Source of the DNA: Erysipelotrichaceae bacterium
Lineage (GTDB): Bacteria > Bacillota_I > Bacilli_A > Erysipelotrichales > Erysipelotrichaceae
Length of the DNA stretch: 60,545 nucleotides
Assembly: GCA_045599505.1 (NCBI GenBank)
Contig: JAZRWC010000067.1
Coordinates: 1-60,545 of the forward strand
Direction: 5' to 3'
Shown here: in pieces, positions 38,615 to 55,887 of the stretch
Numbering within the stretch: position 1 is the first letter of the stretch
How the letters are laid out: every line of letters begins with the position of its first letter
The notes under the pieces: generated by a model
What the model was told of the DNA's origin: nothing
Databases searched by the model: none
What the model saw: only the letters and a program-made list of their open reading frames with translations
Translations under genes and position numbers: made by a program

Positions 38615-39766
38615 TTATAATAGTGCTGCCGATTTTCTTCGCTTATATATCAAAGCTAAAATAGATGACATAACAGCGAATAAGCCAATCACAAATAACG
38701 CTACATTTACATTGTAGCTATCTTCTAAAGCCCCTACTAGTAAAGGAGCAATCAAAGCACTACTTGATGAATATAAAGCTAACCCTACCTGCTGGCCGCT
38801 TGATCTGATATTTTCTGGCGTCTCTTCTAGTATCAGATATTTACTTGTAACAGTCATAACTGGATAAGTAATAAACTGTAAGATTGAAATCAAGAATATC
38901 TGAGTTAAAGTAGTTGATAAACCGTATAGTAAATATCTCAATCCATAAACTGATGCACATAATAACATCATATTACCTGATCCAATCTTGTCTAATAACT
39001 TCTTTCCTAAAAAGAATAAAGGAAGCTCAATCATAGCCGATAAAGACCAATAGAAGCTAACCTGTGATGGTTTAGCATGTAATAATTCCATCTTATCAAC
39101 AATTGTATAATCTAATGATACCTGCATAATAAATGTACCAAGTAGCATCACACAAACTAGCATATACATAGGATTGGTAACTAACTTACCAATATCCTTA
39201 ACATCCATCTTTTCACTAGAGTTTTTAACTGCATCTGGAATCAAGTAACAGATACCTAATGAGATTATTGTTGTTAAACCAAAGGCAATCGGTACTAATT
39301 GATAACCAAAAGTCTCAACAACTTTAGAGATTACTGCACTACCTACTGCCCAACCTACTGAACCAAAAGCTCTACAAAAACCATATGACTCATTACAATC
39401 GCTCTCTAAAATCCAACTATCAATTAATCCTTGCAGCATTCTCATAAAGCCAATATTACCAGCTACTGCTAACAAATGAATAATGACGTTTTGAGTTTTT
39501 GTAAGATATAAAATTAACACTATAACAATATAAAACGCCCAAACGAAATTAGCATATTTCTTAATAGCTTTGCTCTTGTCGCAAAAATATCCTAAGATAA
39601 ACTGTCCAACAATACCACAAATAGCACCAACAGCGTACATTACACTTCTTAATGAAGCGCTATATCCTAAAGAAATAAGGAATGAAATCATCAGACAATA
39701 GCCTAACGCTAAACAAAACCATTCCATAAAGAACAACGCTGTAAACAATATCTTCTGTTTCTTCAT
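38615..39766 (-). CDS. MFS transporter
   Basis: 383 aa with about 12 TM helices and a composition typical of major facilitator proteins. Substrate unknown. Confidence 0.6.
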   Translation of the reverse strand: MKKQKILFTALFFMEWFCLALGYCLMISFLISLGYSASLRSVMYAVGAICGIVGQFILGYFCDKSKAIKKYANFVWAFYIVIVLILYLTKTQNVIIHLLAVAGNIGFMRMLQGLIDSWILESDCNESYGFCRAFGSVGWAVGSAVISKVVETFGYQLVPIAFGLTTIISLGICYLIPDAVKNSSEKMDVKDIGKLVTNPMYMLVCVMLLGTFIMQVSLDYTIVDKMELLHAKPSQVSFYWSLSAMIELPLFFLGKKLLDKIGSGNMMLLCASVYGLRYLLYGLSTTLTQIFLISILQFITYPVMTVTSKYLILEETPENIRSSGQQVGLALYSSSSALIAPLLVGALEDSYNVNVALFVIGLFAVMSSILALIYKRRKSAALL

Positions 39767-51648: not shown

Positions 51649-52112
51649 TACTTGTGATATGCTTCGTTATTTAAAATCTTATATCCACGATAAATCTGCT
51701 CTAAAATTAGTAGTCTAGCAATATTATGTGGGAAAGTCATTTCAGAAAGCTTTAATAGATAATCAGCCCTATCTTTAACTTCTTGGCTTACCCCTAGTGA
51801 TCCTCCAATCACAAATGTGATATTTGAAGAATGATATGTATTTATCTCTTCAATCTTCTTAGCGAACGCTACACTATCTAATTGTTTGCCTGTAAGTTCT
51901 AACAAGACTACATAACTATCCTTTTTAATAGCTTTTAGTATTTTCTGTCCTTCTAGTTGCTTGACTGTCTGTTCAGGTAATTTATCGTTTGGTTCATCCT
52001 GCAATTCAACTATCTCAATTTTAGTATATCCAGATATTCTCTTTTTATACTCATCGATAAGACTAGCAAGTGATATTTCTTTGATTTTACCAACAGCGAT
52101 AATTGTTATCAC
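51648..52112 (-). CDS. rlmH: 23S rRNA (pseudouridine1915-N3)-methyltransferase
   Basis: SPOUT family pattern with a C-terminal ...LSEMTFPH..ARL.L.EQIYR. The GTG start overlaps the metG TGA as GTGA. Confidence 0.9.
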   Translation of the reverse strand: MITIIAVGKIKEISLASLIDEYKKRISGYTKIEIVELQDEPNDKLPEQTVKQLEGQKILKAIKKDSYVVLLELTGKQLDSVAFAKKIEEINTYHSSNITFVIGGSLGVSQEVKDRADYLLKLSEMTFPHNIARLLILEQIYRGYKILNNEAYHK

Positions 52113-54043
52113 TTAATGTTAGCTCCATCTTCTACTTCTGATAAGCTAACTACTTCTAACTTACCATTTTCGTCTTCTGCAGATAAGATCATACCTTGAG
52201 ATTCAACACCTCTTAAAGTAACAGGCTTTAAGTTTGCGATGAAGGCAATCTTCTTACCAACTAACTGTTCTGGCTTATACCATTTAGCGATACCACTAAC
52301 AATCTGTCTAGTGTCAGTTCCACACTTAATCTTAAATACTAACAACTTATCAGCCTTTGGATGCTTGTCACATTCTAAGACTGTACCAACTCTAATATCT
52401 AACTTAGCGAAATCATCGATAGATACTTCATCCTTGTATTCCATCTTCTTTACAACTGGCTTTTTGCTTTCTAAGTATTCATTGATTTCTACTAACTTCT
52501 TAGCAGCATCAATTCTTGCGAATAATACTGTTGGAGTTTCAGTAACCTTATTATTAGTTTCGTAGTTACCCCAAGTTAATACTGAGTCATATGAAGTTGC
52601 CTTTGTATTGATCTGTGAATATACATTCTGTGCTGTTTCAGGCATGAATGGTTCCATTAATACTGTCGCAATTCTGATACCTTCAAATAAGTTATATAAA
52701 ACTGTATTTAATCTTGGATTATTAGCTTCATCCTTAGCTAATGACCATGGAGTAGTTTCATCAATGTACTTGTTACATCTTCTTAATAAATCTAAGATAG
52801 CTTCAATAGCGTCAGCTACTCTTAAATCATCCATCTTCTTATCTACCTTCTTAACAGTATCTAAGGCGAATGTTACTAATTCATCATCTAATGGTTCCTT
52901 ACAAGTAGGTTCTGTTAATGTACCACCGAAATACTTATTAGTCATTGCGATAGTTCTATTTACTAAGTTACCATATACGTTAGCTAAGTCAGAGTTAATT
53001 CTTTCAATAACTAAGTCCCAAGTAATTGAACCATCCTGAGAAAATGGCATTTCATGTAATGCGAAATATCTAACAGCGTCAACACCAAAATACTTTACTA
53101 AGTCATCAGCGTAGATTGCGTTACCTCTTGATTTAGAAATCTTATCTTCGCCAACTAGCATCCAAGGATGACCGAATACCTGCTTAGGTAAAGGTTCACC
53201 TAAAGCTAATAACATGATTGGCCAATAAATAGTATGGAATCTGATGATATCCTTACCGATTAAGTGTAAATCTGCTGGCCAGTACTTATTGTACATTTCA
53301 TCATGATTGCCATCACAATCATATCCAATACCAGTGATATAGTTGCTTAATGCATCAATCCAAACATAAACAACATGCTTGTCATCGAAATCTACAGGTA
53401 CGCCCCACTTAAATGAAGTTCTTGATACACATAAATCCTGTAAACCTGGCTATAAGAAGTTATTAATCATTTCATTCTTTCTGCTTTCAGGCTGAATGAA
53501 TTCTGGATGATCTTCGATATAGCCCATTAATTCGTCAGCATACTTGCTCATCTTGAAGAAATATGATTCTTCCTTTTCCTTATGAACAGGTCTACCACAG
53601 TCTGGACAATTTCCATCGACTAATTGAGCTTCTGTCCAGAATGATTCACATGGAGTACAATACCAGCCTTCGTATTCACTCTTATAAATATCTCCTTGGT
53701 TATAAAGCTTCTTGAAAATCTTCTGAACCTGCTTTTCATGATATTCATCAGTAGTTCTAATGAACTTATCATAAGAAGTGTTCATTAAATCCCAGATTTC
53801 TTTAATTGTTCCTGCTTTTTCATCTACATACTGCTTAGGAGTCATTCCAACTTCCTTAGCCTTTTCTTCAATCTTCTGACCATGTTCATCAGAGCCAGTC
53901 TGGAAGAATACATCATATCCTACCATTCTCTTGTATCTAGCGATACTATCAGCCATGATAATTTCATAAGTGTTACCAATATGTGGCTTTGCACTTGCAT
54001 AGGCAATTGCGGTTGTAATGTAATACTTTCCTTTATTTTCCAT
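52109..54043 (-). CDS. metG: methionine--tRNA ligase, one reading frame interrupted by a single in-frame TAG at 53450-53452
   Basis: The track fragments 53450..54043 (HIGH-type KPHIGN, zinc knuckle CTPC...CPDC) and 52109..53296 (KISKS, anticodon domain, C-terminal tRNA-binding domain) are in the same frame. The 150 nt between them translate without stops as [51 protein letters not shown]. That is conserved MetRS sequence. Confidence 0.9.
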
Positions 54044-54061
54044 CTTTTTTACCTCCTAAAA

Positions 54062-54275
54062 AATAAAAAGGCACCATATTTAAGGACGTCTTAAACGTGG
54101 TACCACCTTAGTTACTTCTCAATACGTTAACGCCGTCATACGTTCTTATCTACATATCGATAAGACTGCTCCAAGACCATGTTCTCAATATACCTCGAAT
54201 ATTTTTCACCAGACAATATCTCTCTTGATTTGCTAATATATTGATACTCTTCTTTTCATCGCTTTACTACTAAAG
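54062..54275 (-). promoter_or_regulatory. T-box riboswitch leader, Met (AUG) specifier, with terminator
   Basis: On the minus strand: AGCGAUGAAAAGAAGAGUA (stem I base), AGAGA, GGUGAAA distal loop, GAAC-AUG-G specifier (AUG at 54180-54178). The T-box sequence AAGGUGGUACCACG lies at 54107-54096. The terminator GGUACCA...UGGUGCC is followed by a U-run. Confidence 0.85.
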
Positions 54276-54322: not shown

Positions 54323-54350
54323 TTTACCTACTATTTTGTTATGCTATAAT
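54323..54350 (+). promoter_or_regulatory. SigA-type promoter with extended -10
   Basis: TTTACC (54323-54328), 16-nt spacer ending in TGC, TATAAT (54345-54350). Confidence 0.6.
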
Positions 54351-54363
54351 ACTCAAGCAAACA

Positions 54364-54493
54364 TCTTATAAAGAGCGCAGGAGGGACTAGCCCATCGATC
54401 GTGCACCAACCTATTTAGTTAGGTGGTAAAGCTAGTATGATAAGATAACTTTTACTAGATCACCCAAGGTAAAGTTATCTTGGGTGTTTTTTT
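54364..54493 (+). promoter_or_regulatory. SAM-I clan (S-box) riboswitch with terminator/antiterminator expression platform
   Basis: AUCUUAU-AAAGAG-CGCAGGAGGGACUAGCCCAUCGAUCGUGCACCAACC-UAUUUAGUUAGGUGGUAAAGCUAGU-AUGAUAAGAU matches the S-box core (P1, AGAG, GGAGGGA, GCCC, CAACC, GGUG.UAA). The terminator is CACCCAAG...CUUGGGUG followed by U7. AAGAUAACUUUUAC can pair with GUAAAGUUAUCUU as the antiterminator. Confidence 0.8.
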
Positions 54494-54522
54494 GACTTGT
54501 TCAATAAGGAGGTAGTAAAAGT

Positions 54523-55320
54523 ATGATTGAAAAAGTTAATCCATGCCATCCAGATAAGGTGGCAGATAGAATTGCTGGAGCTATCGTTGATTTAGCTTAT
54601 ACAAAAAGTGCTAATCCAAAGGTAGCAGTAGAAGTATTATTAGGACATGAAAATTGTCATATTATCGCTGAAACAAGCGAAGAATTCTCTTATGATGAAG
54701 TTAAAAGTTTAGTTACTAGAATTACCGGAGAAGTAAATTTAGATTTACAGGTGGTTAAGCAGGATGAACATTTAGCAGGTAATCAATCTGAAAAAATCAG
54801 ATGTGGTGATAATGGTATCTTTAAGGGAACTGTTTTAACAGAAGAACAGAAGAAGATTTCTTTAGTAGCTAGAGATATTTATAAAAACTTCCCAACTGAT
54901 GGTAAGTACATTGTTGATAATGATCGTATTATTGTTTGCCAATCAAATGGTTCAACTGAAGACATCGCTAAAGTTGAAAGTTTAAAAGATTTCAAAACTG
55001 TAATCATCAACCCATTAGGTGATTGGACTGGTGGTATCAATGTTGACTCTGGTGCAACTAATAGAAAGTTAGGGTCTGACATGGCTGATTCAGTTACTGG
55101 TGGAGGTCTTCATGGAAAAGACTTATCTAAGGCTGATGTTTCTGTTAACATCTACGCTTTCTTAAAAGCACAAGAAACTAATCAGACAGTTTCAATCTGT
55201 TGTGCTATTGGTGATGATACAATTGATGGAAAGCCATATGAAGAAATCGTTGAAGTAGCTAGAGAATTTATTAACTCATTAGGTGGATTTGAAAAGTTCG
55301 CTGAATGGGGCTTGTATTAA
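54523..55320 (+). CDS. miniature S-adenosylmethionine synthetase (MetK)-like protein, 265 aa
   Basis: By-eye alignment to MetK motifs: CHPDKVADRIAGAIVD (EGHPDKIADQISDAVLD), CGDNG (GAGDQG), TDGKYIV (PDAKSQV), INPLGDW..GG..DSGATNRK (INPTGRF..GGP.GDCGLTGRK) and GGGLHGKDLSKAD (GGGAFSGKDPSKVD). It sits behind a SAM riboswitch. Confidence 0.65.
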   Translation: MIEKVNPCHPDKVADRIAGAIVDLAYTKSANPKVAVEVLLGHENCHIIAETSEEFSYDEVKSLVTRITGEVNLDLQVVKQDEHLAGNQSEKIRCGDNGIFKGTVLTEEQKKISLVARDIYKNFPTDGKYIVDNDRIIVCQSNGSTEDIAKVESLKDFKTVIINPLGDWTGGINVDSGATNRKLGSDMADSVTGGGLHGKDLSKADVSVNIYAFLKAQETNQTVSICCAIGDDTIDGKPYEEIVEVAREFINSLGGFEKFAEWGLY

Positions 55321-55326
55321 AAAATG

Positions 55327-55362
55327 ACCCTCTTATCAAATATAGATAAGAGGGTTTATTTG
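55327..55362. terminator. bidirectional intrinsic terminator
   Basis: 11-bp stem ACCCTCTTATC/GATAAGAGGGT flanked by A6 and a T-rich run. Confidence 0.8.
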
Positions 55363-55887
55363 TTAATGAAATAATAAACTGCAGAATTCGTTAAATAATG
55401 TAATATCAGCTTCCATAGAGAATACGATATACCATCCTTCTTCCCTAACAAATGATTCTACATGACCATTAGGTAAATTGAATTCCATACTATTTTCCTT
55501 ATCGCTACCAGTCAATATTTCAAATTGTTTATCACAATAATAGAAAGTATAATTCTCATAATTATCTAAGCAAGTAACTGTCATATCTTGAGTATTATTA
55601 GTTAATATCTCAGAAAGAGAATATTGATCTAGATCATATAATATATATTCATCTTTTTCATTATCCATATCCTTCATAGGATAAATCTCTGCTGGTAAAT
55701 TATAACTATTGATTGGTTCTACTTCCTTAGGTGCCACCTTATTTAACGTAATAGGATTCACAAATATAGCTAACACTAATACAGCAACTAATGATGAGCC
55801 CGTCATTAGTGCTCTTCTTTTTTGTTTATTATACTTATCCCTTCTACTAAGAAGGTTATTAATCATTTCTTTATCACTTTTCATCAT
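55363..55887 (-). CDS. putative anti-sigma factor (single-pass membrane protein)
   Basis: It overlaps the sigma-factor gene by 14 nt. It has a short cytoplasmic N-terminus, one TM segment (GSSLVAVLVLAIFVNPI) and an extracytoplasmic domain. Confidence 0.5.
   Translation of the reverse strand: MMKSDKEMINNLLSRRDKYNKQKRRALMTGSSLVAVLVLAIFVNPITLNKVAPKEVEPINSYNLPAEIYPMKDMDNEKDEYILYDLDQYSLSEILTNNTQDMTVTCLDNYENYTFYYCDKQFEILTGSDKENSMEFNLPNGHVESFVREEGWYIVFSMEADITLFNEFCSLLFH

Follow-up and report, generated by a model that had tools for sequence, protein, structure and literature searches.

Methionine adenosyltransferase (MAT, or SAM synthetase) is among the most conserved enzymes known. In Firmicutes its gene, metK, is classically controlled by SAM-I (S-box) riboswitches, and in the S-box regulon the SAM riboswitch works as an OFF switch that is expected upstream of genes for SAM-producing enzymes.

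Phages carry MetK homologues too. An ‘S-adenosylmethionine synthetase’ of ~345–353 aa is described for Streptococcus suis phage phiNJ3 and its relatives and for S. pyogenes prophage Phi1207.3 (orf29); all three Pfam domains are recognised in the orf29-type proteins, and it has been proposed in print that the phage MetK supplies the methyl donor for the phage methylase (PMC4260502). A MetK with a 135-aa truncation, called ‘truncated MetK’ and argued to have its catalytic domain spared, is encoded by Streptococcus agalactiae prophage 12/111phiA, which has been linked to Javan-like streptococcal prophages; this protein was studied by phenotype, namely aggregation and biofilm formation (PMC8223999). 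In the full-text literature that we searched, MATs of ~260 aa are mentioned at the level of annotation (PMC8223999, PMC4260502), and we came across no study of their biochemistry or structure.

Here we describe a 265-aa MetK-like ORF in a 60,545-nt stretch of Erysipelotrichaceae DNA (the whole stretch analysed, hereafter the window). Our analysis makes it likely that this ORF encodes a functional, minimised methionine adenosyltransferase (EC 2.5.1.6) of a phage type, adopted by its host under SAM feedback.

Results

A single-gene unit among housekeeping genes

The gene unit comprises the following features:

54523–55320, + strand: mini-metK ORF, ATG start, 265 aa, a compact MAT homologue of the phrog_1569 family
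54506–54512, + strand: ribosome-binding site AAGGAGG, 10 nt before the ATG, read from the sequence
55326–55356, both strands: bidirectional terminator hairpin with 11–12 bp stems, from a terminator scan

A sequence-only reading of this DNA had aligned the ORF by eye to the motifs of MetK, and the translation indeed contains all five motifs that it quoted (NPCHPDKVADRIAGAIVD, CGDNG, TDGKYIV, DSGATNRK and GGGLHGKDLSKAD) within 265 aa, with significant similarity in both phmmer and hhalign. The sequence and the terminator scan place no further gene on the same strand between mini-metK and the hairpin at 55326–55356, which closes mini-metK as a single-gene unit and also ends the convergent gene at 55363–55887 (− strand).

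In the window, mini-metK has housekeeping genes for neighbours (rlmH, metS with a T-box, an ECF sigma factor gene, tmk and holB), and no phage genes were found near it among the genes of the window examined. Its GC content is host-like (34.5%, compared with 34.1 ± 1.8%). Searching the mini protein with phmmer against all six-frame ORFs of the 60-kb window returned only the protein itself, that is, no canonical metK; a 383-aa ORF at 38615–39766, considered as a candidate canonical MetK, was rejected, as it is an MFS transporter. The metS gene in the window has an in-frame TAG. Reassignment of this stop codon was considered as an explanation and rejected, TAG terminating 10 of the 49 long ORFs in the window.

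A compact SAM-I riboswitch precedes the gene

Upstream of the ORF lies a leader with the following features:

54323–54350, + strand: promoter-like site, TTTACC, 16-nt spacer and TATAAT with an upstream TG (consensus scan, 10 of 12 matches)
54363–54446, + strand: SAM-I (S-box) aptamer (Rfam RF00162, 49.6 bits against a gathering score of 44.4, E 2.1e-8)
54442–54481, + strand: predicted antiterminator, in which AAGATAACTTT (54442–54452) is exactly complementary to AAAGTTATCTT (54471–54481), read from the sequence
54461–54493, + strand: intrinsic terminator with an 11-bp stem (hairpin 54461–54486), a 4-nt loop and a T7 tract, from the terminator scan

The earlier placing of the ORF behind an S-box riboswitch thus holds, as the RF00162 match is above the gathering score and the leader is kept in 27 other genomes. 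The aptamer ends 77 nt upstream of the ORF, with the terminator in between, and the promoter-like site would initiate transcription a few bases upstream of the aptamer. At 84 nt the aptamer is compact, comprising P1, P2/P2b, P3 and the P2-loop/J3-4 pseudoknot. The P4 helix is absent: the P4 positions of RF00162 are deleted in the match, so that there is no four-way junction including P4, and in the aligned aptamers only 4 nt lead from the pseudoknot strand to P1. The window aptamer therefore represents the SAM-I core in a variant without P4.

Within the expression platform, AAGATAACTTT shares bases with the 3’ strand of P1, and AAAGTTATCTT with the loop and 3’ arm of the terminator, whose predicted folding energy is −16.2 kcal/mol (z −4.2). 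Judging from these overlaps, antiterminator pairing and terminator/P1 pairing would be mutually exclusive. At high SAM, the bound aptamer would let P1 and the terminator form and transcription would stop, while at low SAM the antiterminator would form and the mini enzyme would be made. Such an arrangement would reproduce the feedback loop classically formed by S-box and metK, the mini enzyme standing in for MetK.

Of 80 genome loci, 27 have the same aptamer and terminator upstream of the gene, as has locus L088, and there are no phage genes near those 27. Riboswitch-linked chromosomal copies thus occur in 27 or more further genomes at species level, from uncultured members of the Bacilli and Clostridia. 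Aptamers from 28 other loci score 54–67 bits against RF00162, and in the related loci a hairpin with a T-tract is again found 3’ of the aptamer. When the aptamer helices were compared across loci, 98.1% of cells were paired, as against 29–45% in slid controls; compensatory changes on both sides were seen in 12 of 26 aptamer pairs, one pseudoknot pair among them, and the covariation score was reached by none of 500 shuffles. Aptamer and protein fall into two co-diverging types among the riboswitch-linked loci. The other riboswitch-linked loci share no conserved synteny with the window; in one lineage mini-metK adjoins a PNP_UDP_1 gene, which we read as an MTA/SAH-nucleosidase-like gene.

A divergent MetK fold with all catalytic residues

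The sequence-only reading had proposed several checks, and those run here all spoke in its favour. One was a search with the three SAM synthetase domain models. PF00438 (S-AdoMet_synt_N) is the only Pfam domain to pass (43.1 bits against a threshold of 33.1), while PF02773, the C domain, is weakly detected below threshold (12.3 bits against 25) and PF02772, the central domain, is not reported in the Pfam search of the 265-aa protein. The TIGR01034 equivalog fails as well (43.7 bits against a cut-off of 309.4). Together, the one passing, one weak and one absent Pfam domain show that the mini-MetK family is too divergent for the curated MetK models.

Searched with phmmer against PDB sequences, the protein hits only SAM synthetases (best E 2.3e-9; residues 3–72 and 152–216), and aligning the family profile to E. 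coli MetK with hhalign yields a probability of 98.6% and an E of 9e-16. The AlphaFold monomer model (pLDDT 95.9, pTM 0.93) could be compared with E. coli MetK, as had been suggested, and matches canonical MATs exclusively and along the whole chain: the best 50 Foldseek matches in the PDB are all MATs, headed by 7loo_B (E. coli MetK; E 4.6e-19, query-normalised TM-score 0.79). Structural alignments with canonical MATs show ~20% identity. The BFVD viral structure library gave no significant match (best E 0.025).

The contrast in size with the ~380–400 aa of known bacterial MetKs was also borne out, since every characterised or solved MAT matched is at least 377 aa long (377–430 aa for the solved ones, against 265 aa). 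Compared with the canonical enzyme, the mini protein lacks about 120 residues, the last ~40 at the C-terminus among them. All three MetK domains, each of which had seemed shortened by eye, are kept in the model and alignments but trimmed in their loops, and the gating-loop region (residues 80–93) is remodelled and has the lowest pLDDT (85–89). Taken together, model and alignments indicate that the mini protein is a real but highly divergent MetK with the three-domain pseudo-threefold α/β fold.

All 16 mapped catalytic or ligand positions of E. coli MetK are retained. The pairs (E. coli/mini) are:

H14/H9, D16/D11, K17/K12, E42/E37, E55/E50, Q98/Q80, D118/D96, K165/K128
S186/S141, F230/W168, D238/D175, R244/R181, K245/K182, K265/K199, K269/K203, D271/D205

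The counterparts are identical except for the conservative change F230/W168, and the 16 positions are invariant in 286 relatives (66–75% identity to the window protein), in the 29 riboswitch-linked copies and the 80 IMG/VR copies alike. This includes the nine residues that the sequence-only reading had singled out for checking (H14, D16, K165, D238, R244, K245, K265, K269 and D271), each of which has an identical counterpart. The mapping was made by hhalign against E. coli MetK and by MAFFT with an intermediate 345-aa phage MetK, and the K165/K128 equivalence depends on the alignment: MAFFT pairs TDGK with PDAK, while hhalign puts DGK on DDGK174–176. We rejected the latter placing in favour of PDAK163–165 because of the MAFFT alignment with the 345-aa phage MetK and because, in the predicted structure, a helix, a short loop, DGK and a β-hairpin follow one another in that order. 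A few divergent relatives (40–49% identity) have lost catalytic residues, and therefore not every member of the family need be an enzyme.

These residues also bear on whether the MetK fold could here serve a related but different chemistry, such as adenosylation of another nucleophile, synthesis of a SAM analogue for hypermodification of phage DNA or RNA, use of another NTP, or mainly tripolyphosphatase activity. The distance from canonical MetK, seen in the TIGR01034 score and the ~20% structural identity, would be in keeping with such a change, as would the remodelled gating loop, and with radical-SAM enzymes and several methyltransferases beside the phage copies (see below), unusual cofactors would be unsurprising. 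At the same time, the counterparts of the methionine-holding E55, Q98 and D238 are invariant, as are that of the adenine-stacking F230 (W168) and the phosphate and metal ligands, and if SAM is what the enzyme makes, a SAM-specific OFF riboswitch, as predicted upstream of the chromosomal copies, is fitting. We consider a different chemistry unlikely, and prefer to read the protein as a methionine adenosyltransferase.

A large, mostly phage-borne family

Going beyond the sequence-only reading, we found that mini-MetK is not a one-off but a very large, predominantly phage-borne family. It comprises more than 8,000 clusters at 90% identity, with proteins of 260–267 aa that show 100% coverage of and 70–75% identity to the ORF, and it corresponds to PHROG phrog_1569 (E 5.6e-69 over residues 1–264), which is annotated as ‘unknown function’. 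Copies reside mostly in phages, mainly temperate phages of gut and rumen Firmicutes. There they are hemmed in by DNA methyltransferase genes, radical-SAM genes and the terminase gene, lie beside the packaging genes, and have SAM-consuming enzymes encoded on their flanks. Translational coupling of the phage copies to the DNA methyltransferase and radical-SAM genes suggests that the phage mini-MAT tops up SAM for phage DNA methylation. Some longer cluster representatives, namely P0206 (joined to capsid and ClpP) and P0276 (joined to a C5 methylase), were set aside as evidence for gene fusion, since they resemble chimeric gene calls or fragments. Several Javan prophages carry 260-aa homologues that are 63% identical to the ORF, and, given the Javan-like link of prophage 12/111phiA, its truncated MetK probably belongs to the mini-MetK family as well, an assignment made through that link and not by direct sequence comparison.

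A protein spread so overwhelmingly by phages might instead be a non-catalytic mimic of MetK, one that binds host MetK (forming heterodimers), or binds SAM or methionine, and so modulates host SAM metabolism or counters a SAM-dependent defence; in that case the copies on chromosomes would act as regulators and not as enzymes. Phages are known to target host MetK: the SAM lyase of T3 binds it, as seen in PDB 8bb1, one of the Foldseek matches of the mini-MetK model. Absolute conservation of 16 catalytic positions in 286 members, on the other hand, is not expected of a mimic, and a gene that would be made at low SAM fits a producer of SAM better than an inhibitor, which leaves this reading very improbable beside that of an active enzyme.

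A further question is whether the window copy is a leftover prophage passenger without a role in the host, its riboswitch being coincidental or regulating something else. A neighbour-joining tree of the family, built to see whether the riboswitch-linked copies are monophyletic and in which direction the gene was transferred, is star-like and weakly resolved, with two riboswitch-linked clusters and some phage copies nested among them; this interleaving, and the different synteny around the cassette between lineages, is what a passenger might leave. But the unit is complete, from riboswitch and terminator to ribosome-binding site, gene and second terminator, and the arrangement recurs in at least 27 species with two co-diverging aptamer/protein types. 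Moreover, no phage genes lie nearby, the composition of the gene is host-like, and the ORF is intact with invariant catalytic residues. We find a passenger hardly credible on these grounds, and retain the reading of a functional, host-adopted MAT.

Discussion

With the three-domain fold and the complete catalytic apparatus both kept, the mini enzyme should work like MetK. It would form a dimer, in line with the homodimer or tetramer of dimers expected of a MAT, with active sites at the subunit interface and bind ATP, Mg2+/K+ and L-methionine; the adenosyl group would be moved to the methionine sulfur and the tripolyphosphate hydrolysed (ATP + L-Met -> SAM + PPi + Pi).

We put forward more tentatively, and would not yet favour over its converse, a larger proposal: that in several lineages of uncultured small-genome Bacilli and Clostridia from gut and rumen a phage-type mini-MAT replaced the canonical and almost universal housekeeping metK, inherited its S-box control, and is the only SAM synthetase there. 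If this replacement is real, an essential core gene would have been displaced xenologously by an auxiliary gene of phages, the sole SAM synthetase of the cell would be a 260-aa enzyme of phage ancestry, and the lower size limit of functional MATs would be set anew.

An active family would show which third of MAT is dispensable, and would offer a compact scaffold for enzymatic synthesis of SAM and SAM analogues. Gut and rumen phages carry this family in great abundance, mostly labelled ‘hypothetical’ or ‘unknown function’, so naming it would annotate thousands of genes and, if the suggested role is correct, would point to SAM supply as limiting phage self-methylation. The riboswitch-controlled chromosomal copies provide functional evidence independent of protein homology, because in them the gene would be under SAM feedback control, and it is these copies that prompt the proposal of a replaced core gene.

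Comparison with known systems

Canonical MetK (E. coli, 384 aa) and the mini enzyme have in common the fold and the motifs HPDK, GD(Q/N)G, (P)D(A/G)K, NP.G, D.G.T.RK and GGG...GKD.SK.D, while the mini enzyme differs in its trimmed loops, the loss of the last ~40 residues, its ~20% identity and its failure against TIGR01034.

In temperate phages of streptococci, the ~345–353 aa MetKs share the niche of the mini copies, with replication genes on one side and the terminase on the other, and this niche adjoins a ParB-DNA methylase and a C5 methylase (PMC4260502). They are 80–90 aa longer than the mini protein and 29% identical to it, and a riboswitch is reported for none of them. The MetK of 12/111phiA is a prophage accessory gene without a riboswitch in a host that also has canonical MetK, whereas the window copy is chromosomal and has one. 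Similarly, phrog_1569 matches the ORF end to end but describes phage proteins, while the window copy is chromosomal and riboswitch-controlled.

The S-box metK attenuation unit of Bacillus subtilis and other Firmicutes resembles the window unit in its SAM-I core, in its mutually exclusive antiterminator and terminator, and in OFF control of a gene for SAM synthetase; in the window, the exclusive pairing and the OFF control are predicted from the sequence and the enzyme is a likely SAM synthetase. The window unit differs in that its aptamer is a compact 84 nt without P4 and in that the enzyme under control would be a mini, phage-type MAT.

A compact metK-like gene behind a SAM-I riboswitch

The sequence-only reading had described a minimised MetK-like ORF behind a SAM riboswitch, and the observation is confirmed: all of the MetK motifs that it quoted are present in the 265-aa ORF (here mini-metK), and the aptamer upstream matches the Rfam model above its gathering score. 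The unit consists of the following elements.

54323-54350, just upstream of the aptamer: promoter-like pattern TTTACC-16-(TG)TATAAT
54363-54446 (+): SAM-I (S-box) aptamer, Rfam score 49.6 bits (gathering score 44.4; E 2.1e-8)
54442-54452: predicted antiterminator segment AAGATAACTTT, overlapping the 3' strand of P1
54461-54493, 3' of the aptamer: terminator, 11-bp hairpin plus T7
54471-54481: AAAGTTATCTT, exact complement of AAGATAACTTT, overlapping the terminator loop and 3' arm
10 nt 5' of the mini-metK ATG: AAGGAGG site
54523-55320 (+): mini-metK ORF, ATG start, 265 aa
55326-55356: bidirectional terminator, closing the mini-metK unit

The two complementary segments, which were read from the sequence, are predicted to form with the aptamer and terminator a standard antiterminator/terminator platform, that is, an OFF switch. 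Because of this platform, the AAGGAGG site and the closing terminator, mini-metK appears to be a self-contained single-gene transcription unit under riboswitch control. Its surroundings are ordinary chromosome, with rlmH and metS (with a T-box leader) on one flank and an ECF sigma factor, tmk and holB on the other, and its GC content (34.5%) matches that of the rest of the window (34.1 +/- 1.8%).

A single in-frame TAG (~53447-53449, '...MINNFL*PGLQDLCVSR...') interrupts the metS (methionyl-tRNA synthetase) gene, at 52109-54055 (-) behind the T-box leader at 54079-54268 (-), leaving segments of 201 and 446 codons. We rejected a recoded genome as its source because TAG terminates 10 of the 49 long ORFs in the window; in this essential gene the TAG reflects either a nonsense mutation or a sequencing error, or else marks a site of read-through.

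Homology, fold and active site

By curated models, the protein qualifies as MetK in part only: it passes the Pfam N-terminal domain (43.1 bits, threshold 33.1), is sub-threshold for the C-terminal domain (12.3 bits against 25), and had no reported match to the central domain in the Pfam scan. Moreover, scoring 43.7 bits against NCBIfam equivalog TIGR01034, far under the cut-off of 309.4, it does not count as a member of the curated MetK equivalog family. Homology to MetK is secure at the level of sequence comparison, because phmmer against PDB sequences returned SAM synthetases only (best E 2.3e-9) and hhalign matched the family profile to E. coli MetK (sequence verified as identical to PDB 7ll3_A) with a probability of 98.6% and E 9e-16.

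An AlphaFold2 model built with 33 family members as input (mean pLDDT 95.9, pTM 0.93, zero disordered segments) shows a complete predicted MetK fold. All of its top 50 Foldseek matches in the PDB are canonical methionine adenosyltransferases (MATs) of ~370-395 aa, the best being E. coli MetK 7loo_B (E 4.6e-19, query-normalised TM-score 0.79); none of the 50 is of comparable size, and neither phmmer nor Foldseek against the PDB found a solved MAT shorter than 377 aa. Alignments show that the ~120 residues absent relative to canonical MetK come from trimmed loops across all three domains and from the C-terminal ~40, so that the earlier impression of a shortening in each pseudo-repeat was right.

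Active-site residues were mapped with the hhalign alignment and with a MAFFT L-INS-i alignment in which a 345-aa phage MetK served as bridge. The equivalences (E. coli MetK/mini enzyme) are H14/H9, D16/D11, K17/K12, E42/E37, E55/E50, Q98/Q80, D118/D96, K165/K128, S186/S141, F230/W168, D238/D175, R244/R181, K245/K182, K265/K199, K269/K203 and D271/D205. In practice none of the 16 positions varies across 286 full-length relatives (the window protein, 79 genome loci, 80 IMG/VR loci and listed database clusters) that are only 66-75% identical to the window protein, the sole departures being one sequence gapped at H9, D11 and K12 and one K12N; the catalytic residues singled out by the sequence-only reading (H14, D16, K165, D238, R244, K245, K265, K269 and D271) are thus all matched. 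The K165/K128 equivalence depends on the alignment, with hhalign placing DGK on E. coli DDGK174-176 and MAFFT placing TDGK on PDAK163-165. We set the former aside and accepted the latter because the model places helix 107-122, a short loop, DGK and beta-hairpin 127-140 in the same succession as in MetK.

With the MetK fold and active-site residues kept, the computational results support, as far as they can, the proposal of a minimised MAT, and the protein is probably a functional MAT. Four divergent family representatives (P0134, P0167, P0204 and P0214; 39-48% identity, protein alignment A1) have lost catalytic residues: HPDK reads TPNK or ANINK, GD(N)G differs, and other residues stand in for the K and D of GKDxSKxD. 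These may be inactive or neofunctionalised paralogues.

Riboswitch-linked chromosomal copies

A SAM-I aptamer above the gathering score lies directly 5' of mini-metK in 27 of the 80 best genome loci (54-67 bits) and also at L088, a locus from the metagenome contig set; the terminator platform is likewise conserved. No phage neighbours were found at the 27 genome loci or L088. The flanks are heterogeneous chromosomal genes, and the genomes are MAGs from gut and rumen, labelled Bacilli, Erysipelotrichaceae, Clostridia or Oscillospiraceae.

When 29 aptamers were aligned, 98.1% of cells were paired, with compensatory double changes in 12 of 26 pairs, one of them a pseudoknot pair (CUAG/CUAG to CAAG/CUUG); no shuffle reached the observed score, and slid controls dropped to 29-45% paired. 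The aptamers fall into two types, 'ATCTTATAAAGAG...' and 'TGTCCATAAAGAG...', which correspond to two clusters of proteins in a neighbour-joining tree, and therefore aptamer and gene diverged together. The tree is star-like, with some phage copies nested among riboswitch-linked ones, without settling the direction or number of transfers.

These aptamers (window 54363-54446 and 28 loci, alignment A3) are unusually compact, at 84-91 nt against 108 nt for the model, have no P4 helix, and leave only ~4 nt from the pseudoknot strand to P1; as aligned, they may be a naturally occurring SAM-I subclass that lacks P4 and goes with mini-metK. At L004:5600-6001, L020 and L025:5623-6001 the aptamer lies ~300 nt 5' of the start codon rather than the usual ~70-100 nt, and at L004 an 82-aa ORF stands between aptamer and gene. 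At Clostridia-type riboswitch loci, an ECF-transporter S component (PF07155, E 2e-43) is found ~100-130 nt 3' of mini-metK (L012:6914-7471, L031:6887-7465, L045:3767-4345), which could be a co-regulated transporter with a SAM- or methionine-related substrate.

Phage-borne copies

Searching 5.8 billion proteins with mini-metK gave at least 8,000 scored matches, all with E <= 0.001; the best 120 of these are 259-297 aa long (mostly 260-267), align over 100% of the query and share 70-75% identity with it. Clustering at 50% yielded 211 family representatives at E < 1e-30. The family is encoded on at least 596 IMG/VR contigs and in 36 GenBank phage records, the latter nearly always labelled 'hypothetical protein' and including Streptococcus Javan prophages, Terrisporobacter and Gardnerella phages, and gut Oscillospiraceae phages; PHROG phrog_1569 ('unknown function') matches mini-metK end to end (E 5.6e-69).

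In phages, mini-metK has SAM consumers around it, within the late or packaging region: its upstream neighbour is the small terminase subunit or a ParB_N-N6/N4 DNA methylase, adenine and cytosine methylases often follow, and a radical-SAM gene is sometimes 5'. Coupling to the upstream neighbour is tight: among the 79 viral loci with upstream sequence, 75 have a gap of no more than 25 nt, and at most 2 have space for an upstream riboswitch. The species-representative genome collection holds at least 524 mini-metK loci in many phyla at 65-72% identity, a spread consistent with carriage on mobile elements.

At L038:3727-5040, a 437-aa radical-SAM protein, itself a SAM consumer, lies directly 5' of mini-metK in place of a DNA methylase, and ORFs of about the same length (435-439 aa) precede the gene at L017, L042 and L053. 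Two mini-metK copies on different contigs occur in Longibaculum muris (L035, L079), Anaerosporobacter faecicola (L040, L071) and one Lachnospiraceae MAG (L038, L055), at least L035, L038, L040, L055 and L079 being of the tightly coupled, phage-context type; such duplicates suggest polylysogeny.

Proposed role and comparison with known systems

In the host, falling SAM would leave the aptamer empty, the antiterminator would form, and transcription would read through so that mini-metK is made; with SAM replete, P1 and the terminator would form and shut mini-metK off. In the phage, mini-metK would raise SAM for phage DNA methylation before packaging. Mini-metK is best read as a compact phage-type MAT subfamily, apparently domesticated in the window under S-box control. 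On this reading the size floor for MAT would be lower than known so far, a very abundant phage 'unknown' would gain a function, and displacement of an essential core gene becomes a possibility that can be tested.

It is possible, though somewhat less likely than not, that mini-metK is the sole MAT of the riboswitch-linked lineages, having replaced the canonical one. Searching the window ORFs with the mini protein found no canonical metK within the 60 kb. Co-existence of both forms is normal for prophage copies, because streptococcal hosts of such copies possess their own MetK (PMC8223999) and the two genes occur together at L075. On that Cloacimonadota MAG contig (JALNXT010000001.1), mini-metK (L075:81-863, its upstream sequence cut off) and canonical metK (L075:2322-3449; 375 aa, 349 bits to E. 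coli MetK) lie on the same strand, 1.5 kb apart.

The literature searched yielded neither a report of a riboswitch-controlled chromosomal mini-metK nor any biochemical or structural work on a ~260-aa MAT. The paper on S. agalactiae prophage 12/111phiA describes a 'MetK with a 135-amino-acid truncation' and links it to aggregation and biofilm phenotypes, but reports no enzymology (PMC8223999); this protein probably belongs to the mini-metK family. Phage SAM synthetases of ~345-353 aa have been annotated in comparable methylase modules, where they have been suggested to supply the methylase with methyl donor (PMC4260502), but share only 29% identity with the mini enzyme. Its closest characterised relatives are the canonical MetK proteins; although it falls outside their curated equivalog family, the mini enzyme, whose activity we infer, resembles them in every computational test.
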